Source: a plasmid
Sequence record: NZ_CP118102.1
DNA length: 64,000 bases
Strand: one strand, 5' to 3'
The position numbers and the translations under genes are program-made. Every line of letters starts with the position of its first letter. Positions within the stretch are counted from its first letter, which is position 1. A model generated the notes under the pieces. The model did not search any database. It saw only the letters and a program-made list of their open reading frames with translations, and was not told the DNA's origin. Below, in pieces: positions 14,461 through 47,798 of this stretch.

Positions 14461-14480
14461 CGGGAAAGGAGGGGATCGCC

Positions 14481-22960: not shown

Positions 22961-23786
22961 TCTACTTTCACTCACTCCAAACTACACATCACTTTATTAT
23001 TATATAGTCTTGATTGGTGCAGGAGGGAATGGTGGATATACGGTGCAACGTCTAACTAAGATGATGAGTGCATTTAATAATGTTCCATCCTTTCTTATGA
23101 TTGCTGATCCGGATACTGTAGAGGAAAAGAACATTCTGCGGCAGCCTTTTATCCCGTCTGATATTGGGCTCAAGAAATCCGAGGTATTAGCTAAGCGATA
23201 TGGCGGTACATATGGATTAAAGATCGGTTCTTTCTCAGATTCATATATTGAGTCGGTAGAACAAATAGAAAAACTTTTTTCTCTGACGGATTACCGGCAT
23301 AAGCCTGGACAATACATTCAAAAGGTACTTATAGGTGCTGTAGATAATGATTTTTCAAGAAACATCATGAATGATTACTTCAATCGGACGGATGATATCA
23401 TTTATATTGATGCCGGCATCGAAGGGGTTTTCATGCCAAGTGAGCAGCCACAAGATCAGTGGTCTACCGAGGAACTAAAGGACCACATGGATAGTGGCTA
23501 TTCCGGTCAGATTGTTGTAGGACTAAAAAAAGACGGGAAGGAGATCTTACCGCCTCTAAATGTGGTTTACCCTATAAATGCGGAAGATGCTATCCCTCCG
23601 TCTCACAACTGTGGGTTAGAGCCTTATCAACCACAACGGATGATCGCCAATGAATATGCTGCCATGCATATATCTACAGTTCTTAATGAGCTTTTTAGCT
23701 CAAATTCGATTCATATTCATATATCGAACTTCTCAGCAAGGAATGGTAGCTGCCGTCCTATTTATTTTGAAGAGGTACAGGAATAG
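22953..23786 (+). CDS. E1-like (ThiF/MoeB/UBA family) adenylyltransferase
   Basis: 277 aa. IVLIGAGGNGGYTVQRL...IADPDTVEEKNILRQPF (glycine-rich nucleotide loop plus DxDxVexsNLnRQ motif), ...GLKKSEVLAKR, ...GAVDNDFSRN. Start overlaps the JAB gene stop. Confidence 0.85.
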   Translation: MINLLSLTPNYTSLYYYIVLIGAGGNGGYTVQRLTKMMSAFNNVPSFLMIADPDTVEEKNILRQPFIPSDIGLKKSEVLAKRYGGTYGLKIGSFSDSYIESVEQIEKLFSLTDYRHKPGQYIQKVLIGAVDNDFSRNIMNDYFNRTDDIIYIDAGIEGVFMPSEQPQDQWSTEELKDHMDSGYSGQIVVGLKKDGKEILPPLNVVYPINAEDAIPPSHNCGLEPYQPQRMIANEYAAMHISTVLNELFSSNSIHIHISNFSARNGSCRPIYFEEVQE

Positions 23787-23805
23787 CCGCCCAATTGTCA
23801 CATTT

Positions 23806-23838
23806 AAAAAGGGGGCATAATAATTACCCCCTTTTTTC
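23806..23838 (+). terminator. Rho-independent terminator after the E1 gene
   Basis: aaaaaggggg cataataatta ccccc tttttt. Confidence 0.7.
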
Positions 23839-23858
23839 TACAATGAAACACTAGGCAA

Positions 23859-24043
23859 TTGACGAATTTTGTCTTTTTTGCTATAACTAAAGTATTACAT
23901 GAGTTATAAATTTTTCTTTATCGTTGACTATTCGATAAAGAGAGAGTTAAACCGATAATCGGCTAATAAATATTTTGGGCTTAATTTGCCATGGAGAACA
24001 TAGACACCGGAGGTGTCTATTTGTGTTTCTATGGCTTTTTTTG
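23859..24043 (+). ncRNA. Candidate small RNA or structured leader: sigma-A-like promoter followed about 100 nt later by a strong intrinsic terminator
   Basis: TTGACG (23859-23864), 17 nt, TATAAC (23882-23887). Nested hairpin ccatggagaacatagacaccggaggtgtctatttgtgtttctatgg plus T7 at 23989-24043. No ORF of meaningful size between them. Confidence 0.3.
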
Positions 24044-24156
24044 TGCCTTACGGGAGGTCATACATAATTAACGAGTACAGAGATCCTTATCAAGTTAGTG
24101 ATGAATTGTTGATCCCTGCAGAAGACTAGGTTGAAACGCTATGTGCCGAGCAATTT

Positions 24157-24954
24157 GTGCTTCCCACACTTCCACCAGAGATGTACGCTGTGGACCAGTA
24201 TGACCACTATCATATTAACTTTTCAGGGGGTGCCGACTCACTTGCGCTCGCCTTGATTATGAAATATGGATACAAAATACCATCCGAAAAGATGGTTCTT
24301 GTCCATATGCGAGTTGATGGAAATCCGGAAGAGAAGCAGCAACTCTTTGATTGGCCGCAGACCGATGAATACTTGCGATACGCAAGTGAAAAGCTGGATA
24401 TTCCATTGGTCGTTATTTGGGGTGACAAGTCACTTGAAGAACGTATTCGAGATCGCAAAATGTTTCCGGATAAAAGCTGCAGATTCTGCACTTCTTATAC
24501 GAAGCGAGACGTTTACGCAAAGTGGGTTCGTCAGTTCGATGACTGTAAAATTCTAATGCTTACTGGGGAACGCTCAGAAGAATCATCTGATCGAGCGAAG
24601 GAGCCAATATTTGAGTATCATCCTGCCCATGCAACTAAAAGAAAGAATCGTGAAGTGCATTGGTTCCGACCGATCAAGAATATGCTTAAATCCCAGGTTA
24701 AGCAGCTGGCCGCCAATTACAGTATTGAACTACACCCTTGTTATCAATGGGTTTCACGTTGCAGCTGTCGTTTCTGTATCTTTAATACCGCTTCGGAAAT
24801 GGAGCGTGTCGCTCAGCTCTACCCTGATGATTGGGAGTACTTAAAACGTATGGAGTTACATCTTGGCCATACCATGAAAACCAAAAGGGGTAAACCAGTC
24901 CTTCTTTCTGAATTTGTGAATGAATCTCAAGTCACCATATCAGACTTCATCTGA
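24157..24954 (+). CDS. PAPS-reductase-family PP-loop ATPase (phosphoadenosine phosphosulfate reductase-like)
   Basis: PP-loop SGGADS near the N-terminus. C-terminal Cys cluster CYQWVSRCSCRFC. GTG 24157 or ATG 24181 as start. Confidence 0.7.
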   Translation: MLPTLPPEMYAVDQYDHYHINFSGGADSLALALIMKYGYKIPSEKMVLVHMRVDGNPEEKQQLFDWPQTDEYLRYASEKLDIPLVVIWGDKSLEERIRDRKMFPDKSCRFCTSYTKRDVYAKWVRQFDDCKILMLTGERSEESSDRAKEPIFEYHPAHATKRKNREVHWFRPIKNMLKSQVKQLAANYSIELHPCYQWVSRCSCRFCIFNTASEMERVAQLYPDDWEYLKRMELHLGHTMKTKRGKPVLLSEFVNESQVTISDFI

Positions 24955-26726: not shown

Positions 26727-27674
26727 CTAAACTTGCTTTTTTTCTTTTGATGTTATGATGGAAGGGATCGAAGGTTTTATTTTATGCATTGCTCTTTCCT
26801 TCACCTCATCCATAACGTGAGTATATATTTGAGTTGTAGAAATGGACTCATGACCAAGAAGATCCTGTACTGCACGAAGATCAGCCCCATTCCGTAAAAG
26901 ATCCGTCGCGAATGAATGTCTAAATTTATGGGCAGATAATGACATTCCGGAAAACTGAGGATATTCTGCTATAAGTGCATCAAAAGTTTTTTCTGCGATA
27001 GTCTGCACCATTCGCTTGCTAATACGCCTGCGAAATTGAGAAACAAAGAAAGCAGGCTCCTTGCTATTCCAGGGAGTTATTCGTTCCGTCAAGTATAACT
27101 CTAACAGTTGATTTAACTCAGCTGGAAGAGGGATATATCTCCATTTCCCCCCTTTACCTAAGACACCAATATTTGAGTTATCTTTATCATAATTAACTAT
27201 ATCTAATCTAACTATCTCGCTTACACGAAGTCCAGCGTACGCCATTAAAGCGACGATCGTAATATCCCTTAATTGATGTCTTCCTTTAATGAGCTCCAGG
27301 GAGGCATCTAAAAACTGTTTTTGGAGGTAGGTAGGTTGCCTTTTCTTTTCAACTTTTGCTTTTTCAATGTCCAATGTAGGATTATGATCTATTACTCGGA
27401 ATCTAACCATCACTTTATAAAATAATCGAATTGCTGACTGACACCGATTTCGGTAGCGTGCTCCTGCACCATTTTCTCTAACCTGGGTGAGATAGGTCAT
27501 AATTTCAATATCCGTAACATCATTGATGGGTTTATCATCTAAACTTAGGAGAAAATGCTTTAAATCATGAAGATAAGCATTTTGGGTATCTTTCGAATAT
27601 TCACGATCCTTCATATAGGAAACAAACAGCCTTACTTCTCGATCGTAACGCTCGAATATTTCTATATAACCCAT
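26727..27674 (-). CDS. Tyrosine site-specific recombinase (XerC/XerD-like phage integrase family)
   Basis: 315 aa. Catalytic region [40 protein letters not shown] (R..HxxR..Y). The interval between the GKGGK box and HxxRH is too short for an integron IntI-specific insertion. Confidence 0.85.
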
Positions 27675-27891
27675 TAACTCACATCCTAAAATTCGTTTTA
27701 AATCAAAATTGCATTAAATGCTTATTTAATGCAATTTTATTATAGCAAAAGTGCAGTCATTTACAAAGAAACAGAATAGCAGGAGCTATGGTGCTCTTAA
27801 TAATATTAAAGGCGAAATATGTTTATTCATCCAAAATAGAGACTTGCCGATATATATTAGAAACACGCTATAAAAAGGAGGTATTGGTATT

Positions 27892-28089
27892 ATGTCAATT
27901 CGTTTCATGAAGCCATTAAAATCTGATATTCAACTGCATACAGCAAAATTGGACCAGGAGCCAATATTAGTCTTTAATTCATATGAGCTTGTCGGTAGCG
28001 GCAGTATTGAAGAAATCACAGAGTATTCGGTCAAAGTTCGTGGAAATCGCTATTTTAAGGGAGTGCATACGTTCAAGTATGCTCAATAA
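27892..28089 (+). CDS. Hypothetical small protein (65 aa)
   Basis: RBS AAAAGGAGG before ATG. Confidence 0.4.
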   Translation: MSIRFMKPLKSDIQLHTAKLDQEPILVFNSYELVGSGSIEEITEYSVKVRGNRYFKGVHTFKYAQ

Positions 28090-28241
28090 CAGTTGAAATT
28101 TGAGTAAGTTTAGCGAAAAATCTTATTTTTTCAAACATTAAAAGAAGTAGTTCAAAATAATTAACATTTAAAAAGGATTTTATAGGTAAATAGTCGAATG
28201 GATATATGAGATAAAATAACTACACGAGAGAGGTTAGGAAC

Positions 28242-28970
28242 ATGAAGGATAAGCTTAAAGGCATGGTTTTAGGAGTTTTAATTAGTTCATTAGTATTGGG
28301 TGGTACTGTGACATATGCTGCTACTAATACAAAGTTGAGTGTTGTTTTAGAAAATATAAAGTATATGTTTGACGGTGTCCATAAACAAACGACTCAGTCC
28401 ATCATTTATAATGGGACATTGTATGTTCCAGCTAAGAAAGTAGCTCAAGGATTTGGAGAATCTTTTACATATGATGGAAAGAACAAGACAGCTTGGTACG
28501 GACAAAAGAACGGAACATTTAAATATCTAGATGAAATTAGTTATGCTAGAGTGGACGGGAAAAATCCAACTGGATCGATTAACTTTAAAAATTGGACGAA
28601 TCCTGCTAACTTAAAATTTACAATCGCTGACCAACAATATCTTCATGGTATAGGATCAGTACTTGATCAAAATTATAGTAGTGGCGATTACCAAAACTCA
28701 ATTGATTACAATTTAAATGGTAAATATAAAAAATTAACTGGCTTTATTGGAGTTGATGATTACACAAAAAATTCGGTTAATACAGGTACAATCACCATTA
28801 TAGGTGATGGACAAGAATTGTTTAGACAAGAAAATCTAAAGGGTGGAGATATGCCATCTAAAATTAACGTAGACGTAAGTGGTGTATTAAAGCTTCAAAT
28901 TAAATTTGAAAGTTCAGTTGATGAAGGTAAGCATATTGATTTAGTTATTGGAGATGCTAAATTGTATTGA
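28242..28970 (+). CDS. Secreted protein with copper-amine-oxidase-N-terminal-like domain and C-terminal beta-rich (NPCBM-like) domain
   Basis: Signal peptide MKDKLKGMVLGVLISSLVLGGTVTYAA. IYNGTLYVPAKKVAQGFGESFTYDGKNKTAWY matches the Cu_amine_oxidN1 pattern. Confidence 0.5.
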   Translation: MKDKLKGMVLGVLISSLVLGGTVTYAATNTKLSVVLENIKYMFDGVHKQTTQSIIYNGTLYVPAKKVAQGFGESFTYDGKNKTAWYGQKNGTFKYLDEISYARVDGKNPTGSINFKNWTNPANLKFTIADQQYLHGIGSVLDQNYSSGDYQNSIDYNLNGKYKKLTGFIGVDDYTKNSVNTGTITIIGDGQELFRQENLKGGDMPSKINVDVSGVLKLQIKFESSVDEGKHIDLVIGDAKLY

Positions 28971-29230
28971 TAGATGGCTGTAGGTAGAGTTTCATGAAAA
29001 TTAAGGTTAAATAGAAAGATTCTTTAATGAAAAAGCGGCAGTCGCTGAGACTGCCGTTATTTAATTTTTGATATGAACTTTGTAAAAGTAAATTTCTTAT
29101 AGCGGAATCATAGAAAGCGAAAAATAGCTGTATAGGGATGCTACATTTGGATGGGGATCCAAACTGATGCAAACGGCCATATTTAAATCACATTGGGTTA
29201 AGCTGATGGGAAACGTTAGTCGAAAATAAA

Positions 29231-29294
29231 TTGGAGCAATTTGCCGATTGGCAGCTGCTCCTTGCTCATTAAGCTAAGCTAGTTACGGGCAGGC
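29231..29294. repeat. Composite palindromic repeat family, copy (hairpin B plus half-site A, interrupted variant)
   Basis: ggagcaatttgccgattggcagctgctcc ... cattaagctaa gctagtta cgggcagg. Confidence 0.6.
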
Positions 29295-29324
29295 TAATAA
29301 AATAAAAAACCTCTTATGAGGTCT

Positions 29325-29567
29325 TTATTCCTTAATGTTGCTCTTATAATGTTGGTATCGACTAATTCCTAAAAATACTGAAGCAATAATAAACATCCAA
29401 GATTGAAACATATCTTGCCTTCTGATTATGTCTTGAATTAATGAAGAAGCGGCAAGAAGTATTAGAGTTAATATAACTACATCGGCAAACAAAGGTATTC
29501 TTTTGAAGTACCACCTTAGAACTAGCCAACTTAAAGCTCCTAGGCCTAACAACCAATAAAGAAACAT
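29325..29567 (-). CDS. Small two-TM membrane protein (80 aa), paralog A
   Basis: RBS GAGGTG before ATG. Terminator hairpin on the minus strand at 29306-29330. Confidence 0.55.
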   Translation of the reverse strand: MFLYWLLGLGALSWLVLRWYFKRIPLFADVVILTLILLAASSLIQDIIRRQDMFQSWMFIIASVFLGISRYQHYKSNIKE

Positions 29568-29650
29568 TGTTGCACCTCACAAAAATTAGATGTATTTTAA
29601 GGAAAACAAATAGCACCTTGTTGTTAGAAGGTCTGGCTTTGTAGATTGAT

Positions 29651-29911
29651 TTAAGATTGAACAATGATTTTCTTTATTTCCTTATAACGACGGAATGCAA
29701 GTATAAGTGAAGTGATAATAGTCATGAGAGCAACAAAAGGGTCTGATTGGTATTTAAATAAAACCTCAAAGAGATATCCAACTCCAAGTAAAAATAGGGT
29801 TAGGATCATGGTATCCGTAAATGTTGGTTTTATATTCAAAAATTTTTTGAATGACCAATTTAGAATTAAGGAACTGATAACCCCTAAGCCAATAACCCAA
29901 TATACGAACAT
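29651..29911 (-). CDS. Small two-TM membrane protein (86 aa), paralog B
   Basis: Start at MFVYWVIGLGV... with RBS GGAGGTG. Alignable with paralog A (MFLYWLLGLGA...). The longer ORF-track start at 30025 is unlikely. Confidence 0.55.
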   Translation of the reverse strand: MFVYWVIGLGVISSLILNWSFKKFLNIKPTFTDTMILTLFLLGVGYLFEVLFKYQSDPFVALMTIITSLILAFRRYKEIKKIIVQS

Positions 29912-30074
29912 GTCACACCTCCAGATTAAACTTAACACAATATACAGTATATGTAAATTACATCGAAAGACGATTTTTGTCGAGGGACAATAACTTGTAC
30001 CGATTACCGGAATGGACATGAGCATGGGCCTATTACCGATTAGATAAATATCTAACTGAAATTCACAGCTATTT

Positions 30075-30093
30075 CATTAAGCTAACGGGCAGG
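30075..30093. repeat. Half-site A copy (cattaagctaacgggcagg) at the end of a roughly 100-bp repeat shared with 32040-32140
   Basis: The 29990-30100 segment is alignable with 32040-32140 (cttgtaccgatt.ccg.aatggaca...attaccgattagataaatatctaactgaa...cattaagctaacggg). Confidence 0.7.
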
Positions 30094-30331
30094 TTAACGT
30101 CCGCCTACTCCACCAACTTTCTAATTAACTAACGCGCAGTCGCGAAAAAAAGAACCATTTGAATTTAATTGCAGCAGCAAAGCACAGAATAATTCATCCT
30201 TAATAAAAGACAATTTTCTTGTTTTAGTCAGAAGGGGGGGGTCTCAACTAACGCGTGAAGAATAATTGGAATGACTTTTGAAAGGAGATTCGAATTGAAA
30301 ATTTGTAAAAGAGGCTGCAATTGTTGCTGTA

Positions 30332-30523
30332 GTGATCTTTATCTTTAATTTAATTTTGGAACTACTATTTGATATGAGCGATTTCTTTGAGAGTTTTGAA
30401 AAGGGATTTGTACTGGGAGTAGGGTATTACTTAATACTTCTTATATCAGTATTTTTAATAGTATTGATAATAATGGCTATATCTAGGATTATCTCTAAAC
30501 TAAGGAGAACTAATAAAAAATGA
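30332..30523 (+). CDS. Small hydrophobic protein (63 aa)
   Basis: Single TM-like segment. Flanked by repeat copies. Confidence 0.35.
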   Translation: MIFIFNLILELLFDMSDFFESFEKGFVLGVGYYLILLISVFLIVLIIMAISRIISKLRRTNKK

Positions 30524-30602
30524 GTTATACGTATGCAGGCTAAATGATTAGATTTAAAACAAAAAGACAGGTAGAAATTCTCGTATTAATTTTAGATCGT
30601 AT

Positions 30603-30621
30603 CATTAAGCTAACGGGTAGG
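30603..30621. repeat. Half-site A copy (cattaagctaacgggtagg)
   Basis: Direct sequence match. Confidence 0.6.
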
Positions 30622-30887
30622 TTAGGTTAACATAACAAAGATGTAAAAATGCCCATAAATTCTACTACTTAAAAACGCGCTGATAAGCAATTTTCACGGG
30701 CTGTATTGATCTCGTCAGTGCCAGTACAGGGGAGTTGAGAAAAAGGTACGGGTTGATTTATGTGGATAAGGAGATGAAGGGAACGGAACATTGAAACGCA
30801 GCCGTAAGGACTCCTTTTACTGGTAAAAAAATGCATTGAATCAAACGGCCAGGAATTAAATTAGTATATATTTTAGACTCATTGAGT

Positions 30888-30931
30888 TTGTTAAAGGAAA
30901 AGACTGAGTCCATACGGAAACATGGACTCAG
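30888..30931. terminator. Perfect 15-bp stem hairpin, possibly a bidirectional terminator
   Basis: aaagactgagtccat acggaaac atggactcagtcttt plus tgc. Confidence 0.5.
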
Positions 30932-31269
30932 TCTTTTGCAATACCTTGCTTATTTTAAATAGTCAAGCATAAAGGGAATTTGACTTCTCTTCGGACCACC
31001 CCTTTATTTTCTTTGCCGTAAACGGAGCGCTAACCGGTCGATTAGAGTAATAGTTCCGCAATTGTTCAACGTACATTTCAATTCATTACTATCAATTGAA
31101 GTTGGATACTCATCTTCAAACATTACCAAGGATTGTGGCAGACGTGTACTGGGCACCGTTGGTTGCGATCGGATCATAAATTGTCGGGAGACAAGAACAT
31201 ATTCCCATTGAAGTCGCTAATTTAGCGGCTTTTTTGTTATGGCTTTAGCCAGTTGAGTGCGTGAAACGC

Positions 31270-32050
31270 GCGAAACAAAAAACCACCCGCTATGCGGGTG
31301 GAGGAATCAAAGGTTTGACCACCAAGACCATTCCGATAGAATTGAGATGTTCAGGCTCAAAGAAAGGAATGGTCTTAGATGGCAAACAAGAGCTACAGCC
31401 TAGCTCACACAAAGTGGATGTGCAAATACCACATTGTATTCACCCCGAAGTATAGACGGAAAGAGATCTATAATCAAGTAAGAAAAGATCTAATTGAAAT
31501 ATTCAAACGTTTATGTAAGTACAAAGGAGTAGAAATCATAGAAGGCCACATGATGCCAGATCACGTGCACATGTTGGTAGCAATCCCACCGAAAATTGCA
31601 GTCTCATCGTTCATGGGATATCTAAAAGGTAAAAGTTCTCTAATGATCTTTGAGAAACATGCCCAACTAAAATACAAATACGGAAATCGTAAATTCTGGG
31701 CAGAAGGATATTATGTAAGTACAGTGGGCTTAAATGAAGCGACGGTAAGAAAGTACATTCGTGAACAAGAAGCACATGACCAAGCAGTAGATAAACTGAG
31801 CGTAAAAGAATACGAAGATCCGTTCATCAGTAACAGGACCAAAAAGAAATAAACCAGTTTAACTGGTAAGTGAAAGTGACAAAAACACTGAGCCTGAACA
31901 GACTTGCTGTCAGGCTAGCGTCTTTAGGCGCAGTTTGGCAACAGGGGGTTATACCCCAAGAGCAAACCACCCGTTGGACGGGTGGTCCTGATTTTGATTT
32001 TATCGGTACAAGTTCTTGTCCCAAGCCAAGGACAAGAACTTGTACCGATT
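31270..32050 (+). mobile_element. IS200/IS605-family insertion sequence (tnpA only)
   Basis: Left-end hairpin ccacccgctatgcgggtgg (31283-31301), right-end hairpin ccacccgttggacgggtgg (31966-31984) and a 44-bp perfect palindrome at 32004-32047. Confidence 0.7.
31379..31852 (+). CDS. tnpA: IS200/IS605-family transposase TnpA (Y1 HUH)
   Basis: 157 aa. HUH motif region MPDHVHMLVAIPPKIAVSSFMGYLKGKSS and catalytic Tyr region YYVSTVG. Confidence 0.9.
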   Translation: MANKSYSLAHTKWMCKYHIVFTPKYRRKEIYNQVRKDLIEIFKRLCKYKGVEIIEGHMMPDHVHMLVAIPPKIAVSSFMGYLKGKSSLMIFEKHAQLKYKYGNRKFWAEGYYVSTVGLNEATVRKYIREQEAHDQAVDKLSVKEYEDPFISNRTKKK

Positions 32051-32119
32051 GCCGAAATGGACAAGAACATAGTCCGATTACCGATTAGATAAATATCTAA
32101 CTGAAGTTTACAGCTAGTT

Positions 32120-32137
32120 CATTAAGCTAACGGGCAT
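32120..32137. repeat. Half-site A copy (cattaagctaacgggcat)
   Basis: Direct sequence match. Confidence 0.6.
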
Positions 32138-32232
32138 ATTAGTTATAATTGTTTTCTACAGGCAATAGCGTGTTTTTATGGGTTATCATTGCTCATAGAA
32201 GATTAACCACAAATCTATAAAGGAGCCAAAAC

Positions 32233-32560
32233 ATGAGCAACGATACTCATTCATTATCTGAAGAAGATACTTTTACAATTGAGTGTAATGATATCATTCT
32301 AAGGGAATTTATTTGTGTGTACTGATTTAGATGAGTTTCATTCCTTGACATGGCAACCCGAAATACATGAATATTTGCCGGGTTGGAACGTAACTAAAGA
32401 GCAACGAAAAAATTGGCTTATTAATTATGAAATCCTTGAAAACAAACAGTTTTTAATTGCCGTATCACAAGGTGGTGTCATTGGTGAGCTTCGACTTCGG
32501 ATGGGAATCGAACTAAGGGAGTCAGGGGAGTTAATCGGTTGGTGCTGTACTGGAATCGAT
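32233..32560 (+). pseudogene. GNAT-family N-acetyltransferase (RimL-like), frameshifted near 32310 and 3'-truncated by an IS fragment
   Basis: MSNDTHSLSEEDTFTIECNDIILREFICVY then stop; it continues in another frame: CTDLDEFHSLTWQPEIHEYLPGW... Confidence 0.5.
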
Positions 32561-32748
32561 GCTTGGACAACCAACCGATTGAACGATTCTGGGGTACCTT
32601 TAAAGCAGAAAGCTATTATCTGGAGAAGTATGACACATACGATGATCTTCTAAAAAGTGTGAAAATCTACATGCGCTACTACAATAACAATCGGTATACC
32701 GAACGGCTCAACGGTTTATCTCCTAACGAATTTCGCCGAGCAGCTTAA
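32539..32748 (+). mobile_element. C-terminal fragment of an IS3-family transposase (integrase-core tail)
   Basis: ...IERFWGTFKAESYYLEKYDTYDDLLKSVKIYMRYYNNNRYTERLNGLSPNEFR is typical of the IS3 OrfB C-terminus. Confidence 0.6.
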
Positions 32749-32927
32749 CTAAGGGAAAATAATCACCTCACTTTATAGCCGAGGTATTGAAGAGTGATAA
32801 TCTTTTGTTTTTTAGACTGTCTACTTGACAGGGAGCACTTCACTTTTAGCCAGGCGCTTCTTTTTTCTTTCGCAAAGGGGCAACTGGCGGCCTTGACCGA
32901 CTGCCAATCGCCGCGCCGTGTAAAGTT

Positions 32928-33359
32928 TTACTCAAGTTGATTTTTCTCCTCGACACCTAGCGGTTCAAAAGCTTCTCTAAGCTTATGTGCCATTGTAGTG
33001 TTCCCATCGTAATAATAGACGAGTATTCTGCCCATACCATAAGATCCGTTTGGGGGGGCAGCAGAGGCTGTTGGAAATGGGTCGCGTTGTACTTCTCTCC
33101 TTTGTGCAACGTCTGCGAAAAGGTATATCGTTAAGTTCCCTTGTTCGAGTTGATATAAGTGAATCTCAGCGCCTTCTCTTTGAGAATCATATACATTTTG
33201 GCTTTCAATCCTTTCAACGTATTGAATACCAGCTTCATTAAGAACAGTCAACACGCCGTTTAAAGTCACTCCCGCAAACTGTTCCTGCGTACCTGATTTA
33301 CTGCCACAAGCACATAAAATAAAAACTATAACAATGAAGATAAATAAAGTCTTGTTCAT
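32928..33359 (-). CDS. Lipoprotein, hypothetical
   Basis: Signal peptide with lipobox FILCACGS. Confidence 0.55.
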   Translation of the reverse strand: MNKTLFIFIVIVFILCACGSKSGTQEQFAGVTLNGVLTVLNEAGIQYVERIESQNVYDSQREGAEIHLYQLEQGNLTIYLFADVAQRREVQRDPFPTASAAPPNGSYGMGRILVYYYDGNTTMAHKLREAFEPLGVEEKNQLE

Positions 33360-33779
33360 ACCCCTTCGCCTCCTTTTTAGTTAAGACGTAGAAAAAGTGT
33401 TAATGTTGCATTGCCCCATTAACTTGATATCTATTTCCCTTTTATAAACTATAATTTTTTTTTGCAGCTTTTTTGTAGTTAGAAATGCTACCTCTTTGTG
33501 TTTTAGCGTGTTCTACAAGTAAGTTCATTTTCTCGAATCCGGGGAGTCGTTTCCGCGCTCATTAAACAACGAAAAGCTGTATTGGCTTCGCTAACATCGG
33601 CGTTAGGCGGGAAACTGCGGTTTGATTAGGCCCAAGCAGTAACAGAAAAACGAATTATTAAATATAATTTTCTACAAATTACAACATGTTTTGGTATATA
33701 TTTGGTATTTTTGATCTATATAGTATTTTTATGAATGACAATATAATTTAGAAGAAATATTATGAATTGGAGGTACGAT

Positions 33780-34382
33780 ATGAAAAAGTATTTATTGGTA
33801 CTAAGTGCATTTCTTTGTTTGCTTTTGGTTAGTCAAGAAGTGGGTGCTTATGATTTCTACGGGAGCGGTTACAAGAACACCAACGCAACAACCGGAAGAC
33901 ATGCCAACCCAGCGTTGAACGGAGTTGTATACAACGGAACTACATACAACTTCAACACACATTATGTGAACGCTAGAAATCGATGGAATAATGCTACGGA
34001 TGTAAACGTATCTTCTGGGACGACTGGTACTATTGCAATCAGGTCATTCCACGGCGATTACGGGAATAATGACCTATTCGGATGGGCAAGAATGTACAAG
34101 AGTGACGGGACGACGGTACAATCGTGTGCAACATGCGAACCTACAGCTAACTGGGCCTATTCGGATGTTTATTTAAATCAATTTCATATCCACAATGATG
34201 GCGAAGGCGGCGATCCATGGTCACCTATGTATATCGATGGTCTAGCTACACATGAGTTTGGGCATGCATATGGCTTAGCACATGAGGATGACGTCGAGTC
34301 GGTAATGCATTCCGGAAATCTGTATGAAGGGTATTTAACGCCAAGGCCGGATGATATTAGCGGAATGAACGCTTTACATTAA
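33780..34382 (+). CDS. Secreted zinc metalloprotease, metzincin (matrixin/snapalysin-like)
   Basis: Signal peptide MKKYLLVLSAFLCLLLVSQEVGA. HEFGHAYGLAHEDD matches HExxHxxGxxH. RBS GGAGG. Confidence 0.8.
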   Translation: MKKYLLVLSAFLCLLLVSQEVGAYDFYGSGYKNTNATTGRHANPALNGVVYNGTTYNFNTHYVNARNRWNNATDVNVSSGTTGTIAIRSFHGDYGNNDLFGWARMYKSDGTTVQSCATCEPTANWAYSDVYLNQFHIHNDGEGGDPWSPMYIDGLATHEFGHAYGLAHEDDVESVMHSGNLYEGYLTPRPDDISGMNALH

Positions 34383-34398
34383 ATTTTGGAGGTGCAAA

Positions 34399-35022
34399 AT
34401 GAAGAAGACTATTATTATATTACTGTCATGTATAGCTATGGCGGCATGTTCGAATGTAGAAAAGCCATTAAATACTGCAACTGCTACTAATACTGCAACA
34501 TCAAATATTGCGACCACGCAAATTGTAGACCAAACAGCTGGCTCAACTGCAACAATTCGGCTATATGAATCTCTAGAAGAACTGACTAATAGTTCAGATG
34601 TAGTTGCAGAGATTATACCTGGAGATTCCAAGAAACTAATAGAATACGAAAATGCTAAGTTCACACTAATTGACGCAAAAATTAAAGATGTTTTCGTTGG
34701 AGATAATTCGCTAAAAAATTCAACAATAAAGGTGCTTGAATTGGGAGACTACCAAGTTGGTGATACGCAACTTGTAAAGAGCAAGGAACGTTATTTAATC
34801 TTCTTGAGGAAGTATCAGGGGTCCGTTACCTCTGAAGAAGCTTATGTACCGGTAGGGGTCTATCAAGGGAAGTTAAAAATTAAAGATGATCAAACATTAG
34901 TTTTTGAAGGGGGAGGGGATATTCACGCAAAACAGAAAAAGATTTCCTTCCAACAGGAATTAGCATCCGTTGAATTAACTGAAGCAGTGGAGAAAATTAA
35001 AGCTAGTAAATCTAAAGAATAA
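34399..35022 (+). CDS. Lipoprotein, hypothetical (co-transcribed with the metzincin)
   Basis: Lipobox LSCIAMAACS. 17-bp gap after the metzincin gene. Confidence 0.6.
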   Translation: MKKTIIILLSCIAMAACSNVEKPLNTATATNTATSNIATTQIVDQTAGSTATIRLYESLEELTNSSDVVAEIIPGDSKKLIEYENAKFTLIDAKIKDVFVGDNSLKNSTIKVLELGDYQVGDTQLVKSKERYLIFLRKYQGSVTSEEAYVPVGVYQGKLKIKDDQTLVFEGGGDIHAKQKKISFQQELASVELTEAVEKIKASKSKE

Positions 35023-35024
35023 AG

Positions 35025-35413
35025 CTCAGGCCAGTCCGGAATTGAAAGAGAAGCTCGAGAGGCTGGCGGCGGAAAGCGGCCTAGAGACGCAAGAGGTGTT
35101 CATCGAGCAACTGGCAGCGATCTACGAGCTGCAACAGCTCAAATAAGGCAATGGCAGCGGCTACGCGAAGCAGATCGAGGAACTGGAGCATCATTCGCGC
35201 CGGAACGTGGAGCTTTTCATCGGTCTGATCAACACGGAGGCGGCTGCGCGTCTCCAGCAGACGCAAGCGCATGATGACGTTCTCGCGGAACGGGCGCTGA
35301 CGATCATCGCGCAGGAGCAAGAGCTGGCGGAGCAGCTGGAGGCCAACAAGCTTCTGCGTCTTATTACGTATGCCCAATTGTTCCATGACTTCTTTTACCG
35401 GTATACCGGCTAA
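35025..35413 (+). pseudogene. GC-rich (about 58%) foreign fragment carrying a decayed ORF (one internal stop)
   Basis: Single frame reads ...KEKLERLAAESGLETQEVFIEQLAAIYELQQLK*GNGSGYAKQIEELEHHSRRNVELFIGLINTEAAARLQQTQAHDDVLAERALTIIAQEQELAEQLEAN... Composition is out of place in the low-GC island. Confidence 0.3.
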
Positions 35414-36343
35414 CCTCATCTCAATAGCTTTCATTTTGACTTCAACAGGATAACTAACTCTAGTTGCCAACGAAAAACACCTCCAAGATTGTCTCCATAT
35501 CTTACGACATGGTTGCATTTTCTTGAAGGTGTTTTAATTTGTCTCACGTTATGGGGTCAGTAAAAAATATGAAGGAAGTCGGTTGTCATAATATATATTA
35601 CGTAAACTATTTATTATACATTTAGTCAAAACTCGTATTTTGATCATATGTCTGGGACAAAAGAAAGAGCCATCCATACGGATGGCTCTCTTCTTCATAT
35701 AGCGTTTCTTCTATTATATGTAAATTCTCTCCAATAGTCAATTTCACTTAACCCTTTTGATAAATTTATTCTCGAAAGAAACAAATAACAATTCTTCTTT
35801 TTCTTGGTCATTCTTTTCTCTAATTGAACCTAAAGTTTTACGCAAACCGATTTTCCAAATCAGACAAATAATTAAGGTCTTTCATTGTCACACCTCAATT
35901 CCGACTAAAACCACTCGAATTTAAAACACCGCCCTCTTTGTAGGCGGCGATCTAATTCAGTAATTTCTCATGGTGTATTATTATGATACCCTTATCACAG
36001 TCATTAAATACATAGTATGGAATATAATTTGTCAAACGTTGGACTATTTTGTAGCTCTATAGAGAATATCTAATGGTTTGCGAGCTGCATCCACTGCTGT
36101 TGTTCTCCTTTAGTCAGCTTTTCCTCAAGTATTACCCCATTTTCATCAGTGCTCTTCAGCTTTAGTTGCATCAGCTGCTTGCTTAGTTCAATATATTCCT
36201 TTAATTCGTCTTCAATCAAAATATCTCCTTATTAAAACCCCTAGTATTTTATCGGTTGTCGTAAATTCTTTAGGAAGACATAAGATGATATTTGAGTTTA
36301 TTTAGTTCTGTTACATAATCCCGAAGTTAGTTTGAATTAAAAT

Positions 36344-36407
36344 GGAGCAGCTACCAACCGGCAACTGCTCCATTCTGTTTTAAACTTACGTTTCCCGTTA
36401 GCTTAAT
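36344..36407. repeat. Composite repeat copy: hairpin B plus T-run plus A' (tttcccgttagcttaat)
   Basis: ggagcagctaccaaccggcaactgctcc attctgtttt ... tttcccgttagcttaat. Confidence 0.7.
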
Positions 36408-36428
36408 CAATATCTGTAAAGTCCTTTA

Positions 36429-36974
36429 TCATTCTGTAATGTGCTTGAGCACCTTGGCCGGATTACCCGCGACTATCGTGTTTGCTGGCACATCTTTCGT
36501 TACAATTGAACCAGCTGCCACAATGGAATTATCACCTATTGAAACACCTGGAAGAATTGCACAGTGCCCTCCAATCCAAACATTATTTCCAATCGTTACA
36601 GGAATACCGTAACCAGATTTATTTCGGTCCTTTGGATTAACATTATGACCAGCCGTGTAAATGCCGACATTAGGTGCTATCATGCAATCATCACCGATAC
36701 GAACCTCTGCCATATCCAATATGGTGCAATTGTACCCTGCATAGAAGTAACGGCCAACATGAATGTTATAACCCAAATCACAGTGAAAATTATGATCGAT
36801 ACTAAAACCTTCACATACGCTGCCAAATAGTTCTCTAATCAATCGTTCTTTCTCTTGCTCATCTTCCGGATCGCAGTCATTATAAGCCTTCACAAGCTTT
36901 TGGGCTCTTATGCTTTTTTCTCGAAGTTCCACCGTTCCTCGTTCGTAATAGACCTTTTCTTTATTTTCTTTCAT
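36429..36974 (-). CDS. Maltose/galactoside O-acetyltransferase (left-handed beta-helix, hexapeptide repeat)
   Basis: 181 aa. Hexapeptide repeats IGDDCMIAPNVGIY...IGNNVWIGGHCAILPGVSIGDNSIVAAGSIV. Confidence 0.8.
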   Translation of the reverse strand: MKENKEKVYYERGTVELREKSIRAQKLVKAYNDCDPEDEQEKERLIRELFGSVCEGFSIDHNFHCDLGYNIHVGRYFYAGYNCTILDMAEVRIGDDCMIAPNVGIYTAGHNVNPKDRNKSGYGIPVTIGNNVWIGGHCAILPGVSIGDNSIVAAGSIVTKDVPANTIVAGNPAKVLKHITE

Positions 36975-37037
36975 TGTTTTCCTCCAGGCAAAAACGGTTT
37001 TACTTATTATATACTAGCCAGCATCTACGTTGAAACT

Positions 37038-37095
37038 ACCTGCCCGTTAGCTTAACGAAAAAGGAGCAACTGCCAACCGGCCAACTGCTCCATTG
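37038..37095. repeat. Composite repeat copy: A (cctgcccgttagcttaa), cgaaaaa, hairpin B, ttttttgg (bidirectional terminator-like)
   Basis: cctgcccgttagcttaacgaaaaaggagcaactgccaaccggccaactgctccattgcttttttgg. Confidence 0.75.
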
Positions 37096-37136
37096 CTTTT
37101 TTGGTCTTCAATTTACCCGTCACCTTAAACACTGAA

Positions 37137-37712
37137 TCATTTCATTGATATTGCTATCAAGATCATTTCCTCTTTAGTTAAATCTCCGCTTTGGATTTCA
37201 ATGAAAGTACCATCTTGTATCCATCGTAGGTATCCTCCTGATTTATGGTTAGCCCATTGTTCAAATCGCCCTTCTATTCCATTCATGTTAATTTTCTCTC
37301 CATGTCCATTAAACTTAAATTCCTCGACTATAGTTCTTGTTGTACTTGATTGGTTGCGAAGATCGATGTTAGTGACAACCCGGTTCATTTTATATCCAAC
37401 TGCCTTATGTTCTTCAATTCCAAACAGATATGTCTTTCCTGATTCATCAAAAAAATGAAGTCTAACTTTTGAGACTGATCGACTATGATCAAACGGATAT
37501 GGTTCCTTAATTTCTAATTTATAGCTTTGAACGGAGGAAGACGGTGTAAAAAGTTTGAAATCAGCAATAGTTTTTAACTTATACAATTCAAAATCCGAAA
37601 AAGTTAGCGTAGGTTTAGCTGATGCGATGAGTAAGTTATTGTTGATTCCAACAGAAATCCAACAAATAAAAATCAATGAAATAATCCATCTAGACAAAAA
37701 CATTCCCTCCAT
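37137..37712 (-). CDS. Hypothetical membrane-anchored/secreted protein (191 aa)
   Basis: N-terminal TM segment; no family recognised. Confidence 0.45.
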   Translation of the reverse strand: MEGMFLSRWIISLIFICWISVGINNNLLIASAKPTLTFSDFELYKLKTIADFKLFTPSSSVQSYKLEIKEPYPFDHSRSVSKVRLHFFDESGKTYLFGIEEHKAVGYKMNRVVTNIDLRNQSSTTRTIVEEFKFNGHGEKINMNGIEGRFEQWANHKSGGYLRWIQDGTFIEIQSGDLTKEEMILIAISMK

Positions 37713-37759
37713 ATTTTTTTGGGAATATTATGCCCTTGTTTAATTAAACTAACCTGCCC

Positions 37760-39699
37760 GTTACTAGAGTAAAGGGCTGGGTAAACCAGCCCCTCCTCAT
37801 CAAACCGTACGTGAGGTTTTCCCTCATACGGCTTTCCGATGTTCGTCATTCATGTGCATACAGATTACAAAAGCGTTTTGAGTCCACATTGACTCGCCAT
37901 GTTCCTCACTTCTTGGACTGCACTTTGCCACCGAGAACGTTGTCTTTTCTTTGCATACCACTTTGCCAAACGCAGCACAATGTACCAATCTAACTTCGCC
38001 ATTTTTCGTTGGCTGTAGGACGTGTGGTAGTAATTGCGCCACCCCTGAATCTTCGGATTCAGCCAACCTATGTGCTCCGCGAGTGACTTGTGTCTTTGGC
38101 TGGACGGAGCTAAGCGCTCTTTTACCACTTCCCGGATGCGTTCCTCCGCTTTACTGCACAGCCACTGCTGCGTGGTGTAGTACACTCTTCCGGAGGATGT
38201 CTCAGCTTTCGTCTTGCGATGATGCATGCCTAGAAAATCAAACCCTTCTTCTCCTGTCCATAATCCTACGATCCGCGTTTTCGTCGGATGCAAGGTCAGT
38301 TCCAGACGCTCCATAATCGCACGTATGAGTGCATACGCCCGATCTGCATCTTTCTTCGTTTTGCATACGACAACGAAGTCATCCGCGTAACGCGTAAGTT
38401 CCCCATTTTCACTGCCATGTCGTTCCCACAGAATATCAAAATAATTCAAATAGATATTCGCTAGCAGGGGGGATATCACACCACCTTGTGGTGTACCCAG
38501 ATCGGATCGCCTGATCTTTCCTTCCTCCATCACTCCCGCGTTCAGCCACTTCCTTACCAGCTTCAGGACGCGCCTGTCGCTGATTCGCATCTCTACCAGT
38601 TTCATCAGTTTCTCTTGGTTGATGTTGTCGAAGTAACCTTGGATGTCGACGTCGACCACCCAATTTCCTTTTCGGTTGCAGGCTTTTCGGATTCGGTCCA
38701 GTGCCCCTTTCGCACTTCGTTTTGGACGGAACCCAAATGAGGATTCCTGAAAGTCCGCTTCAAAGATCGGTTCCATGACCAGTTTCGCTGCCATCTGGAT
38801 GACGCGGTCTCGGACGGTTGGGATGCCCAGCGGTCTTTGCTTCCCGTCTTTCTTCGGAATGTAGTGCCGGCGGACGGGCTGTGGATGGTATTTGTTTTCC
38901 TTCAAGTGTCGTTGGCATTCGTACAGGAAAAACGCTTCTCCCTTTTCCTCAATATCCGAAAATGTTTCTCCATCGACGCCAGCCGATCCTTTGTTAGCTC
39001 GTACTCTCCGCCAGGCTTCCTCTAATACATCCATTCGATAGACCTTGTCGTACAACGCGTGGAATCTGCGCTTTTTGTTTTCCTTGGCCGCATGACCTAG
39101 TTTCTTCTGGAGTTGTTGAACGTTTTCCTTTGGTGTCGTTAGCCGTTTGGCATTCACTAATTCGTACCTCCTAAAAAAAAACATGAACAAAGCAGGGCTC
39201 CTTCCCTCCTGCAGGTTGTGTTGTCCTGCAGTTCCTCAGTACTACGAGCCCCTCGGACTCCCTTCCTGCAAGTAGATCATTTCATCTTTTGGACTTATAG
39301 ACCACTTTGTTACGGTTTCAAAAAAAAAAAAAAAAAAATCCGTGCAGGGGAGGGTCTCCCCAGTTCACTGCATCTTCTTTCATATCATGCCGATCCCCTT
39401 ACGCCGGAGGATTCTTCACTGCCGCTCCAAGTTCTTAGCAGTTTCCGTGGCCTTCACCCATTAAGCCGGGGTTCGGCTTCCCCTTGTCCCTCTTGCGAGG
39501 CCTCTTTGACGACGCGGCAGGATTCACTTGATGTTACGGCCTGAAATATTGCTCGCTCTGTCTCCGACAGATACTTTTGTCGATACGCTTCTACGCACAG
39601 TTTTCACCGTACATAGGTATCCTAGCTACACAGGGGCTTGGCCCCTCCTGTGACTGGACTTTCACCAGCTAGAAGATGCGTGCTTAGCTGGGCACGCGC
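37760..39699 (-). mobile_element. Bacterial group II intron (likely class C-like, terminator/hairpin-targeting), copy 1, about 1.94 kb
   Basis: Encodes the RT/maturase. Domain V-like agccgtatgagggaaaacctcacgtacggtt and domain VI-like gggctggtttacccagccc near the 3' end (minus strand). 3' boundary ...ctctagtaac|gggcagg. The 5' boundary is approximate (plus or minus 10 nt). Confidence 0.85.
37865..39190 (-). CDS. Group II intron reverse transcriptase/maturase
   Basis: 441 aa. RT domains with [18 protein letters not shown] and YADDFVVV (RT5/YADD), then the X/maturase domain. Confidence 0.9.
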
Positions 39700-39782
39700 T
39701 TAACGAAAAATGGAGCAGCTGCCAATCGGCAAACTGCTCCTTGTTTTTTTGGACTAACGTGTTTACCGTTAGTTCATTAAAC
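39700..39782. repeat. Composite repeat copy interrupted at its A half-site by group II intron copy 1
   Basis: ttaacgaaaaa tggagcagctgccaatcggcaaactgctcc ttgtttttttgg ... taccgttagttcattaa. Confidence 0.7.
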
Positions 39783-39819
39783 GTACCATGTCTGTATAGT
39801 GATTAAATCACTTTCTTCA

Positions 39820-40722
39820 CTAATCAGTGATTAAAGGCTTTCTTTGGTTAAGCTGATCTTTATTAAAGACTAACTCCCCACGTGTCCAAAATCCTTTTTG
39901 CACATATCCATCCCGATGAATTTTGGTCCCATAGCCATGTTCTAAATTATCTACCCAACCGCCTTCATAAACAGTACCATCATTCCATTTATATATTCCG
40001 TTTCCATCGTACAGCCCATCTTTCCATTCTCCACGATAAAAATCACCATTTGCGTATTCTTTAACACCAAAACCATATTCCTTATCATTAAACCATTGTC
40101 CTTCATATTTTGATCCATCTGACCAACGATACACCCCGGTTCCACATTTTAATCCGTTCATCATTTGCCCGAGGTAAGTTTCACCTGATTCATATTCAAT
40201 ACATATTTGATTCTCCTTTACACTTTCCCATACTCCTTCAACCCTTTTGTTGTCGATATGAATTACGGACTTTATCAAATTAGGTTTTGTCTCATGTTCA
40301 GATTGAGTAACTACTGTTCCTATTTGGGGTTCAAGCAACAAGGGGGGCGGTACAAATTGGTCGTTTACGAAGGTTTTGTAATACCAAGCTGTCAGATCGA
40401 AAATTTCTAAAATAAGTGTTCTCACTTTATTTTTTTCAATGAAAATAAAGCTTTCTCTAGTATCCAAGTATTCTAACTTCTTCAGCGTTGTCACCATGGA
40501 AAAAGGTAAAATTTCAATTTCCATTAGTGCAGATAAATTAATAAAAGGCTCAGAATCATCAATTTCTACATTCTCATTTAGTAGAATCTTTTTAACGATT
40601 AACCGTCCTATTTCTTTCAAATGATTTAAAGCTAAGATGTGGTCAAATTCTAATATATATTCAGCATGATATGCTAAAGAACAGACATCCGGCATTTCGT
40701 TTTCAAACACTTTAAAGCTCAT
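39820..40722 (-). CDS. MORN-repeat protein with uncharacterised N-terminal domain
   Basis: C-terminal repeats YEGQWFNDKEYGFGV, YRGEWKDGLYDGNGIY, YEGGWVDNLEHGYG. Confidence 0.65.
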   Translation of the reverse strand: MSFKVFENEMPDVCSLAYHAEYILEFDHILALNHLKEIGRLIVKKILLNENVEIDDSEPFINLSALMEIEILPFSMVTTLKKLEYLDTRESFIFIEKNKVRTLILEIFDLTAWYYKTFVNDQFVPPPLLLEPQIGTVVTQSEHETKPNLIKSVIHIDNKRVEGVWESVKENQICIEYESGETYLGQMMNGLKCGTGVYRWSDGSKYEGQWFNDKEYGFGVKEYANGDFYRGEWKDGLYDGNGIYKWNDGTVYEGGWVDNLEHGYGTKIHRDGYVQKGFWTRGELVFNKDQLNQRKPLITD

Positions 40723-40779
40723 TCTCCACCTCCATTTTTCCCGATACTATCCAAATAACTTCTACATATACTTTCAACT

Positions 40780-40872
40780 AACCTGCCCGTTAGCTTAACA
40801 AAAATGGAACAGCTGCCAACCGGCGAACTGCTCCATGCAGTTTTGATCTACCGTTTCCCGTTAGTTTAATCC
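40780..40872. repeat. Complete composite repeat: A, hairpin B, A'
   Basis: aacctgcccgttagcttaa caaaaat ggaacagctgccaaccggcgaactgctcc atgcagttttgatc taccgtttcccgttagtttaatcc. Confidence 0.75.
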
Positions 40873-41177
40873 TTAAGGGGCGACAGGTATAGGTTCTTTT
40901 CTACAGGTACTTTAAGAGGAGGCGAGGGGCGACAAACCCCATTTGGTACTTAAATATCCAGATCAAAAAAATTGGTTCAGTATTCCTTTCTCTGCATTCG
41001 AAGAAGTATCCAGAGTTCCTACAAGCGATAATGTCTTTTTGGCTTGTTGTCCTTTCCTTCTTTTCATCCTGTTTAAAAAAATAATTTTTATAAAAAAATA
41101 AAACGCATGCAACATTTTGTCTCTGAAAGTTGTTTGTAAATTTTAGCCTATTTTATCCAATATAAAAAGGAAACTAC

Positions 41178-47394: not shown

Positions 47395-47754
47395 AAAATT
47401 TTATAACTTGTACATTTATTTTACGAGATAAAAGTAGTATTCTATATAGAAGAATCATGAAAATTGCTGAGACCCATAACCTACCGCCTCACCTCGCGTT
47501 AGCCCTGCGCTAAATCGAGTGTGAGGTGTTTTTATGTTTATTAGTCCGATGTTACTCGAAAAAGCGGACGCGCCATTCTCGGATTCGCGCTACATATTTG
47601 AACCGAATATCGACGGCCAGCCACCGCTTAATATTTTCGCAACTTAACGGAGAAGTCCGCTTATATACGCGTCATAATAACGATTGCACGCGCCAATATC
47701 CCGAAATAGCCTGCGAATCGCCAATCGGATTATGTTCTTGTCCATTACGGTAAT

Positions 47755-47798
47755 CGGTACAAGTTCTTGTCCTTGGCTTGGGACAAGAGCTTGTACCG
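47755..47798. repeat. 44-bp near-perfect palindrome, inverted copy of the one at 32004-32047 (solo IS200/IS605-end-like element)
   Basis: cggtacaagttcttgtccttggcttgggacaagagcttgtaccg. Confidence 0.7.

Follow-up and report, generated by a model that had tools for sequence, protein, structure and literature searches.

Plasmid repeats as probable recombination sites of an integron-like cassette system in Paenibacillaceae and related Bacillales

The repeats in the window

We focus here on a 64,000-nt stretch of the plasmid sequence record NZ_CP118102.1, hereafter the window, in which short dyad repeats, hairpins and small open reading frames (ORFs) alternate between about 29 and 41 kb, next to a gene for an Xer-like tyrosine recombinase. 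A preliminary description of this DNA had taken the repeats either for palindrome-associated or miniature inverted-repeat transposable elements (PATEs or MITEs) derived from IS200/IS605 insertion sequences, or for recombination sites that organise a cassette array and resemble the attC sites of integrons. Comparison with other genomes leads us to the second of these: the repeats are probably the recombination sites of an integron-like cassette system of Paenibacillaceae and related Bacillales, which would be worked by an Xer-type tyrosine recombinase.

The repeat family lies where it had first been placed, at counts far above those of shuffled sequence, and comprises in the window five composite units (U1 to U5) and four solo sites of a type that we call B, one of them split by an intron. 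With up to three mismatches allowed, the 19-nt arm occurs five times in the window (30075, 30603 and 32120 on the plus strand, 37039 and 40782 on the minus strand; shuffles, 0.01) and the 29-nt hairpin four times (29233, 37063, 39712 and 40806; shuffles, 0), with a fifth hairpin copy at 36344. The repeats at 29266, 36391, 39766 and 40849 belong to a second site type or are degenerate copies, and have the core TTAAGCTAACGGG in common. The arm had been read as part of a composite palindrome, and every arm is in fact the left half of a dyad site of its own, 26-27 bp long; the two arms of a unit, on the other hand, are direct and not inverted repeats, two copies of TTAAGCTAACGGG standing either side of the hairpin. 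Two site classes are told apart by their spacers, GGGAAAC or GGGCAG: the A site, upstream in a unit, is ATTAAGCTAAC-GGGAAAC-GATAGTTNAA, the B site, downstream, is ATTAAGCTAAC-GGGCAG-GATAGTTNAA, and a full unit runs A, terminator-like hairpin, B. This anatomy is upheld by sequence logos from other genomes (188 A sites and 134 non-exact B sites). A weight matrix trained solely on other genomes, without the window's lineage, finds B-type sites in the window at 30075, 30603 and 32120 on the plus strand and at 37057, 37771 (intron-split), 40800 and 62696 (intron-split) on the minus strand, and A-type sites at 29196 (plus), 36408 and 40871 (both minus), with scores of 24-44 bits against a shuffle maximum of 8.3; it gives no site in 1-19 kb or 41-62 kb. 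The sites, and the cassette ORFs among them, are as follows.

29196-29300, plus strand: U1, with A site 29196-29225, hairpin 29233-29261 and a B site with an 8-nt insertion 29266-29300
30075-30103, plus strand: solo B site, with an IS200/IS605 right-end remnant (29985-30073) just before it
30603-30631, plus strand: solo B site, after a cassette with a 63-aa ORF (30332-30523)
32120-32148, plus strand: solo B site, abutting the right end of an IS200 copy (31178-32118)
36312-36408, minus strand: U2, with A site 36379-36408, hairpin 36344-36371 and a degenerate B site at about 36312-36340
37029-37130, minus strand: U3, with a degenerate A site at about 37100-37130, hairpin 37063-37091 and B site 37029-37057
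39700-39779, minus strand: upstream part of U4, with A site at about 39745-39779, hairpin 39712-39740 and the left part of the B site 39700-39706
37741-37763, minus strand: right part of the B site of U4 (TAACGGGCAGGTTAGTTTAATTA), on the downstream side of the intron
40772-40871, minus strand: U5, the most complete copy, with A site 40842-40871, hairpin 40806-40834 and B site 40772-40800
62666-62688, minus strand: right part of a further B site, split by a second intron copy (62689 to past the window end)
29325-30025, minus strand: two paralogous ORFs for small membrane proteins, which with U1 make up a 0.86-kb segment
36429-36974, minus strand: cassette ORF for a sugar O-acetyltransferase (181 aa), between U3 and U2
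37137-37712, minus strand: cassette ORF for a DUF4367 protein (191 aa)
39820-40722, minus strand: cassette ORF for a MORN-repeat protein (300 aa)

The hairpins are bordered by A and T runs and lie at gene ends. Folding of the full unit, one of the checks first proposed, gives a mixed answer: as single strands, U5 (z = -3.2) and a unit of L106 (z = -4.4; L-numbers label the site-bearing stretches compared) form a whole-unit structure of R-box, internal loop, L-box and hairpin, while U1, U3 and L056 form separate small hairpins and no whole-unit fold. Covariation between the right arm of A and the left arm of B showed nothing obvious by eye. The group II intron is the sole Rfam family in the window, and no Rfam family was found in the array loci.

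Distribution and organisation of the arrays

Species-representative genomes were scanned with the exact B 17-mer, and 8-kb blocks were returned around the matches. The 17-mer occurs in at least 118 stretches; among the matches listed, nearly all are from Paenibacillus or other Bacillales, with Paenibacillus by far in the majority and others from Bacillus, Neobacillus, Lederbergia, Cohnella, Halalkalibacter, Anaerobacillus and Fictibacillus, and they sit on Mb-sized chromosomal contigs and on small contigs. Under relaxed matching, most blocks hold several co-oriented A and B sites, the shuffles giving one B and no A in 793 kb. In L056, L038 and L106 there is one ORF per interval, the pattern of B, ORF, A, hairpin and B being repeated up to ten times in 8 kb. 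The 237 site-to-site intervals in the blocks listed have a median length of 818 bp, and their longest ORF is co-oriented with the sites in 207 (87%), opposite in 27 and absent in three. B precedes the ORF start by roughly 100 nt (median offset from the site start, 124 nt), and the stop codon is commonly no more than 20 nt from the site that follows. Small enzymes and proteins of unknown function are encoded, with no relation to one another. Of 69 units (in L017-L106), 56 have an A-to-B distance of 64-67 nt; the hairpins in between belong to visibly different, apparently unrelated sequence types in different genomes, whereas A and B are constant. Cassettes are also bounded by solo sites, of either class.

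These co-oriented one-ORF intervals in many Bacillales genomes support the proposal of attC-like recombination sites organising a cassette array, and the composite unit shares the two-simple-site layout of attC. The preliminary description had also held that copies spread evenly around the chromosome at operon ends would speak for simple terminator repeats; the copies are indeed dispersed over chromosomes, but they form arrays with clear cassette variation. In the open-access literature we found no description of such a system or of its site sequence, and a cassette system widespread in Paenibacillus and related Gram-positives has thus apparently gone undescribed.

Viral contigs were scanned too and gave six matches. 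The 17-mer is also met elsewhere. Eight of the compared stretches (L014, L037, L058, L075, L087, L091, L116 and L124) are classical integron attC sites of Aquipseudomonas, Atopomonas and related genomes, with the layout YCTAAC GA TTAAGCTAAC GGGCAGG ... GATAGTTGAG CGCATT GTTAGGY; they hold the Paenibacillus B 17-mer and a matching right-arm-like box, which may reflect convergence or shared ancestry. Three contigs of Zetaproteobacteria (L051, L065 and L121) have in common a conserved element, about 250 nt long, with the B 17-mer inside it and no match in Rfam.

Evidence for cassette exchange

Segments of 300-1200 bp at 90-97% identity are found in different species with differing neighbours, and where their ends can be read they fall in the sites. 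L021 and L069 have a common sequence as far as CTAACGGGCAG and then diverge in the right arm, and L025 and L069 one as far as CTAACGGGAAACG. One cassette common to L036 and L107 is followed, past CTAACGGG, by an A site and hairpin in L036 and by a bare B-type site in L107. In L084 and L112 the junction lies inside the left arm, the outer part of which varies with the upstream neighbour. On this comparative evidence, the readable junctions lie within CTAACGGG(CAG / AAACG), that is, in the site core; the left arm thus appears to move with the upstream DNA and the right arm with the downstream cassette, which places exchange in the spacer or at the spacer edges. Crossovers are seen at A sites as well as at B sites. 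For a cassette common to the window and L057 the alignment kept only the ORF and carries no junction information.

The comparison of cassette content among strains that had been proposed at the outset brings out differences. L001, a P. provencensis-type plasmid (L093 is 99.8% identical to it), carries a recombinase identical to that of the window on a backbone that is 97.8% identical, and a different cassette set between the recombinase gene and a blaR1-like gene. The following genes of the window are among those that differ.

27892-28970, plus strand: two ORFs near the recombinase gene (65 aa, and a 242-aa NPCBM-domain protein), in place of which the L001/L093 lineage has other genes

In the same lineage the 0.86-kb segment, which comprises U1 and the two small ORFs, has the opposite orientation with respect to the recombinase gene. 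One of its breakpoints (29197) coincides with the left edge of the A site of U1; the two versions have different left arms. Cassettes common to several species, readable junctions in the core and differing content beside an identical recombinase all speak for the cassette-array reading.

Candidate recombinases

Two families of Xer-like enzymes come into question. The first is represented beside the array of the window.

26727-27674, minus strand: gene for a 315-aa Xer-like tyrosine recombinase (Pfam Phage_integrase and SAM-like domains), a candidate catalyst
27705-27738: palindrome AAAATTGCATTAAAT-GCTT-ATTTAATGCAATTTT, a perfect inverted repeat of 15 bp around a 4-nt spacer, preceding the recombinase gene

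For the 315-aa protein the XerC and XerD models of NCBIfam score top (XerC, 210 bits) yet below their cutoffs. The integron-integrase model TIGR02249 gives 132 bits (cutoff 265) in two stretches that lack the IntI insertion; the nearest solved structure is XerD (1a0p), matched in one stretch at 107 bits, and IntI4 (2a3v) is matched in two stretches. The family is Paenibacillus-specific, at 40-80% identity. All seven homologue contexts that we examined have its palindrome, in the form AAATTGCATTAAAT-N4-ATTTAATGCAATTT, shortly before the gene, where it may be an operator or the enzyme's own site. A divergent array is adjacent in two of the seven, namely the window lineage and Paenibacillus sp. 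OV219; in OV219 it begins 288 nt upstream of the homologue, with a core-like site there. The link of this recombinase to the arrays is moderate.

The second family, of 280 aa, scores 89.5 bits with the integron-integrase model. The homologues listed are 74-100% identical and belong to a Bacillus, a Cohnella and several dozen named species of Paenibacillus; there are also many truncated copies. In L036, L122, L139 and L140 (hosts P. pabuli, Candidatus Pristimantibacillus, Bacillus sp. FJAT-28004 and P. spongiae) the gene lies inside a co-oriented array, about 85 nt downstream of an A site, and short partial matches occur in four further site-bearing loci. A homologue of 54% identity lies in a prophage without sites, which sets a limit to the family. 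Between the A site and the 280-aa gene there is a conserved leader (L036 6389-6475, L139 8801-8889, L140 9909-10000) with a hairpin, CTTAGAAGC...GCTTCTAAG, that adjoins the ribosome-binding site, so that translational control is possible.

A true IntI was also considered and was rejected on the NCBIfam and PDB comparisons. A search of the 200 nt before the recombinase gene of the window brought up no attI-like site.

Mobile elements at the sites

Several kinds of mobile element have come to lie at the sites, among them the intron that splits the unit at 39700-39780.

37764-39699, minus strand: group II intron in the U4 B site, between TTAAGC and TAACGGG (Rfam RF02003 and RF00029; reverse transcriptase 37865-39190 with Pfam RVT_1 and GIIM)

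Two independent copies of the intron (37764-39699 and 62689-64000, minus strand) cut different B sites at the identical bond, between TTAAGC and TAACGGGCAGG, six to seven bases past the hairpin and T run. The 5' junction of the second copy, in the plasmid record, is ATTAAGC followed by the intron, after a different hairpin. The reverse transcriptase has RVT_1, GIIM and RVT_N domains, and an endonuclease domain was not detected in it. There is a 20-nt homopolymer at window 39318-39337.

IS200/IS605 elements are present in the window as the copy at 31178-32118, the right-end remnant at 29985-30073 and a tnpA-less miniature at 47716-47863, which consists of a right end and a left end and is a true end-derived miniature. 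In about 22 loci of many species, IS200/IS605 right ends abut the B site between TCA and TTAAGC, which suggests site-specific targeting. Two to three direct repeats of GAAAATAAAGTATTAGACTGA lie 8-10 nt to the left of B sites and, inverted, to the right of A or B' sites, and match Tn7 TnsB-binding sites; in two species (L044 and L083) they are directly downstream of glmS. The same repeats are seen in L015, L020, L028 (1387-2097), L031, L032, L044, L083, L086, L096, L114 and L129, L028 having an apparent mini element of 0.7 kb with one cassette. The intron, insertion sequence and Tn7-like insertions fit a site frequently available as a target in structured or single-stranded form, and they recall the partnerships of integrons with Tn7 and Tn402.

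Setting of the window

The window is 100% identical over 26.5-41 kb to the Paenibacillus urinalis plasmid NZ_CP118110.1, a 190-kb replicon of a blood isolate, in which the sites are concentrated at 129,990-141,658 next to the recombinase gene, with three outliers in a metal-resistance region. From about 19 kb on the window has a GC content of about 38%; the first 19 kb have about 63% and match no plasmid relative. In 1-19190 the GC content is 59-67% and matches to proteobacterial plasmids are weak (73-80%), 19191-20270 matches the end of a Tn3-family transposon (Paenibacillus sp. Cedars, Brevibacillus plasmids) at 100% identity, and the alignment of every plasmid relative ends at 20271. The boundary of 1-20271 is a junction of unrelated DNA, be it a contig join, a chimera or transposon cargo. 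Beside the backbone of the recombinase, 20171-24954 holds genes for a Prok-E2_D protein, a ThiF-like E1 and a protein of the PAPS (phosphoadenosine phosphosulfate)-reductase family, a cluster that is interrupted by a Tn3-family transposon in other plasmid copies.

Proposed mechanism

We propose that an Xer-type tyrosine recombinase binds the arms of the dyads and exchanges strands at the spacer edges, on a substrate that may be double- or single-stranded, so that cassettes would be excised, inserted, inverted and swapped among arrays on chromosomes, plasmids and transposons. A typical cassette would open with the right arm of a B site, followed after about 100 nt by a single ORF and then by an A site and the hairpin between its A and T runs; it would close with the left arm and spacer of the B site that comes next. 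On this view the unit of A, hairpin and B would be the analogue of attC, two simple sites around a variable stem-loop, and the hairpin would probably double as a transcription terminator that insulates each cassette. The candidate enzymes are the 315-aa recombinase beside the array of the window and the 280-aa family that elsewhere is carried as a cassette, and the sites would serve in addition as landing pads for the group II intron, IS200/IS605 elements and Tn7-like ends.

Several observations weigh against this proposal. First, no site lies within 10 kb of the 315-aa homologue in five of its seven contexts, and this family has a conserved palindrome of its own that differs from the sites. 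Second, the 280-aa family is absent from the window and its plasmid, and a tyrosine recombinase gene of any kind is present in only five of the about 118 Bacillales 8-kb blocks listed. Third, the polymorphism of A-hairpin-B and solo B in L036 and L107 could come from deletion between direct repeats, and one strain difference (L005, window 35666) is not at a site. Fourth, the place beside the recombinase gene at which the two plasmid lineages part showed no attI-like site, and a simple terminator scan of the window did not list the unit hairpins, which we attribute to their interrupted stems. Finally, the evidence is comparative, and neither a circle nor a single-cassette empty site in a sister strain was directly seen.

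We nevertheless regard the integron-like cassette system as the best account. About its fuller form our judgement is evenly poised: a widespread and unrecognised counterpart of the integron, with single-gene arrays on chromosomes, plasmids and Tn7-like transposons, a two-class 27-bp site with a terminator, a cassette-borne Xer-derived recombinase and sites that act as landing pads.

Alternative explanations

The repeats could instead be terminator repeats resembling repetitive extragenic palindromes (REPs) or MITEs, in which a hairpin element was transposed into a preferred intergenic target and the look of cassettes is a by-product. The hairpins with A and T runs at gene ends and the dispersal of copies over chromosomes are what such repeats would give, and the A-hairpin of L036 and the bare B-type site of L107 could be read as a filled and an empty target with duplication of CTAACGGG. 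The supposed interior, on the other hand, differs completely while the supposed flanks are conserved, and the left arms of A and B are no more alike within a unit than across units (4.47 against 4.57 of 8 positions; permutation p 0.79). Cassettes are bounded by solo A and solo B sites too, sites and ORFs are co-oriented in 87% of intervals, whole cassettes are exchanged among species, the junctions lying in the core, and the units come without an associated transposase; we regard this explanation as improbable.

Two particular forms of it were rejected. For PATEs derived from IS200, the ends of the insertion sequences are distinct repeat families (D3, I1 and I3) that abut B sites without common sequence; for a MITE with a 13-bp duplication, the permutation test was negative and the hairpins are diverse. 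With separate IS ends that merely abut the sites, no duplication of arm or target, and hairpins that vary between conserved flanks, the units are thus neither IS-derived PATEs nor recently transposed MITEs, and that half of the preliminary description is not supported.

It is likewise unlikely that the repeats are dif-like sites worked by the housekeeping XerC/XerD of the host (CodV/RipX), the nearby recombinases being irrelevant, as in the pdif modules of Acinetobacter. Inverted arms of about 10 bp around a 6-7 bp spacer are the layout of an Xer site, all candidate recombinases are Xer-like, and most arrays listed have no dedicated recombinase gene in their 8-kb block. The insertion sequences, introns and Tn7-like ends that adjoin the sites here also have a parallel, as insertion sequences that target pdif sites are known (PMC10132070). 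The sites of an array, on the other hand, are direct repeats, whereas dif modules are defined by alternating inverted pairs; the A/B site is not known to resemble the dif consensus of Firmicutes; active dif sites that are repeated directly by the dozen on one chromosome should be unstable; and one specific recombinase, of 280 aa, has its gene embedded in several arrays, each time just downstream of an A site.

Far less probable is a shared regulatory signal of accessory genes, an operator upstream and a terminator downstream, with no rearrangement of DNA. The position of B, about 100 nt before the ORF start, and of the A site and hairpin, just past the stop codon, would suit it; mosaic segments, on the other hand, have their junctions inside the sites, the genes are functionally unrelated, identical sites recur across genera and on plasmids, mobile elements target them, and no promoter-like enrichment was found in the window region. 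Hardly credible, finally, is a genuine integron with attC sites folded as single strands and IntI encoded elsewhere: a unit of about 95 nt is within the attC range and has the attC layout, some copies (U5 and L106) take up the R-box/L-box fold and a Pseudomonas attC family holds the same 17-mer, but both recombinases fall far short of the integrase cutoff (132 and 89.5 against 265 bits) and skip the IntI-specific insertion, the arms depart from RYYYAAC and GTTRRRY, the site is strongly conserved down to its spacers as attC is not, solo simple sites bound cassettes with crossovers at both A and B, and across all Firmicutes IntegronFinder surveys report almost none, namely one complete integron and a few integrase-less attC clusters (CALIN) (PMC9024848).

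Comparison with known systems and significance

If the integron-like cassette system proposed here is active, Gram-positive spore-formers would own an independently built equivalent of the integron, made from an Xer-type enzyme and a simple conserved site, and it would account for a share of the turnover of accessory genes in Paenibacillus, clinical isolates included, as the blood-derived P. urinalis plasmid illustrates. In that case CTAACGGG with its arms would provide a sequence tag with which to harvest cassettes from genomes and metagenomes, enzyme and site would form a compact new recombinase/site pair for genome engineering, and the system would offer a natural case of how integron-like systems arise from Xer recombinases.

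Repeats of the REP type, of bacterial interspersed mosaic elements (BIMEs) or of the bcr type are, like these, palindromic, terminator-like, intergenic and present in many dispersed copies; here, on the other hand, paired dyads surround a variable hairpin, ORF polarity is strict, cassettes are mosaic and recombinase genes are embedded among them. The shufflons of IncI plasmids resemble the present arrays in having a tyrosine recombinase (Rci), many short sites (sfx) with a 7-bp spacer and one well-conserved arm, clustered by the gene, and in inverted segments between lineages, here the 0.86-kb one. Shufflons only invert gene segments of one protein, PilV, whereas here whole unrelated genes appear to be exchanged and most sites are direct repeats.

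In the pdif/dif modules of Acinetobacter plasmids, too, short Xer-type dyads, there recognised by XerC/XerD, flank accessory modules that are shuffled among replicons, and insertion sequences target the sites (PMC10132070, PMC6449649). Those modules have inverted pairs of dif-like sequence and use the XerCD of the host, while here direct repeats form long arrays on chromosomes and plasmids, with terminators and dedicated Xer-like paralogues.

Integrons are the textbook gene-capture device, and they have known partnerships with Tn7, which carries the class 2 integron, and with Tn402. The present arrays differ from them in their hosts, which are Bacillota, in their recombinases, which are Xer-like without the IntI insertion and of which one family lies inside the array as a cassette, and in that no attI was found beside the recombinase of the window. 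The site is highly conserved, spacers included, and has two spacer classes; its consensus arms, AGCTAAC and GATAGTT / GTTAGTT, depart from RYYYAAC ... GTTRRRY at one or two positions, in keeping with the resemblance short of a match noted before; and solo simple sites also bound cassettes. The integron model alone leaves the two spacer classes, the fixed A-to-B spacing and the solo-bounded cassettes unaccounted for, and given the terminator-like stem-loops a single Pc promoter probably does not serve all cassettes. There are likenesses as well. As in the chromosomal integrons of, for example, Vibrio and Xanthomonas, co-oriented single-ORF cassettes of diverse function follow one another; each ends in a composite imperfect palindrome of about 95 nt, in which two simple sites enclose a variable stem-loop; the next cassette takes the right arm of the last simple site with it; cassettes are common to several species; and arrays adjoin transposon ends, as the class 2 integron does in Tn7.

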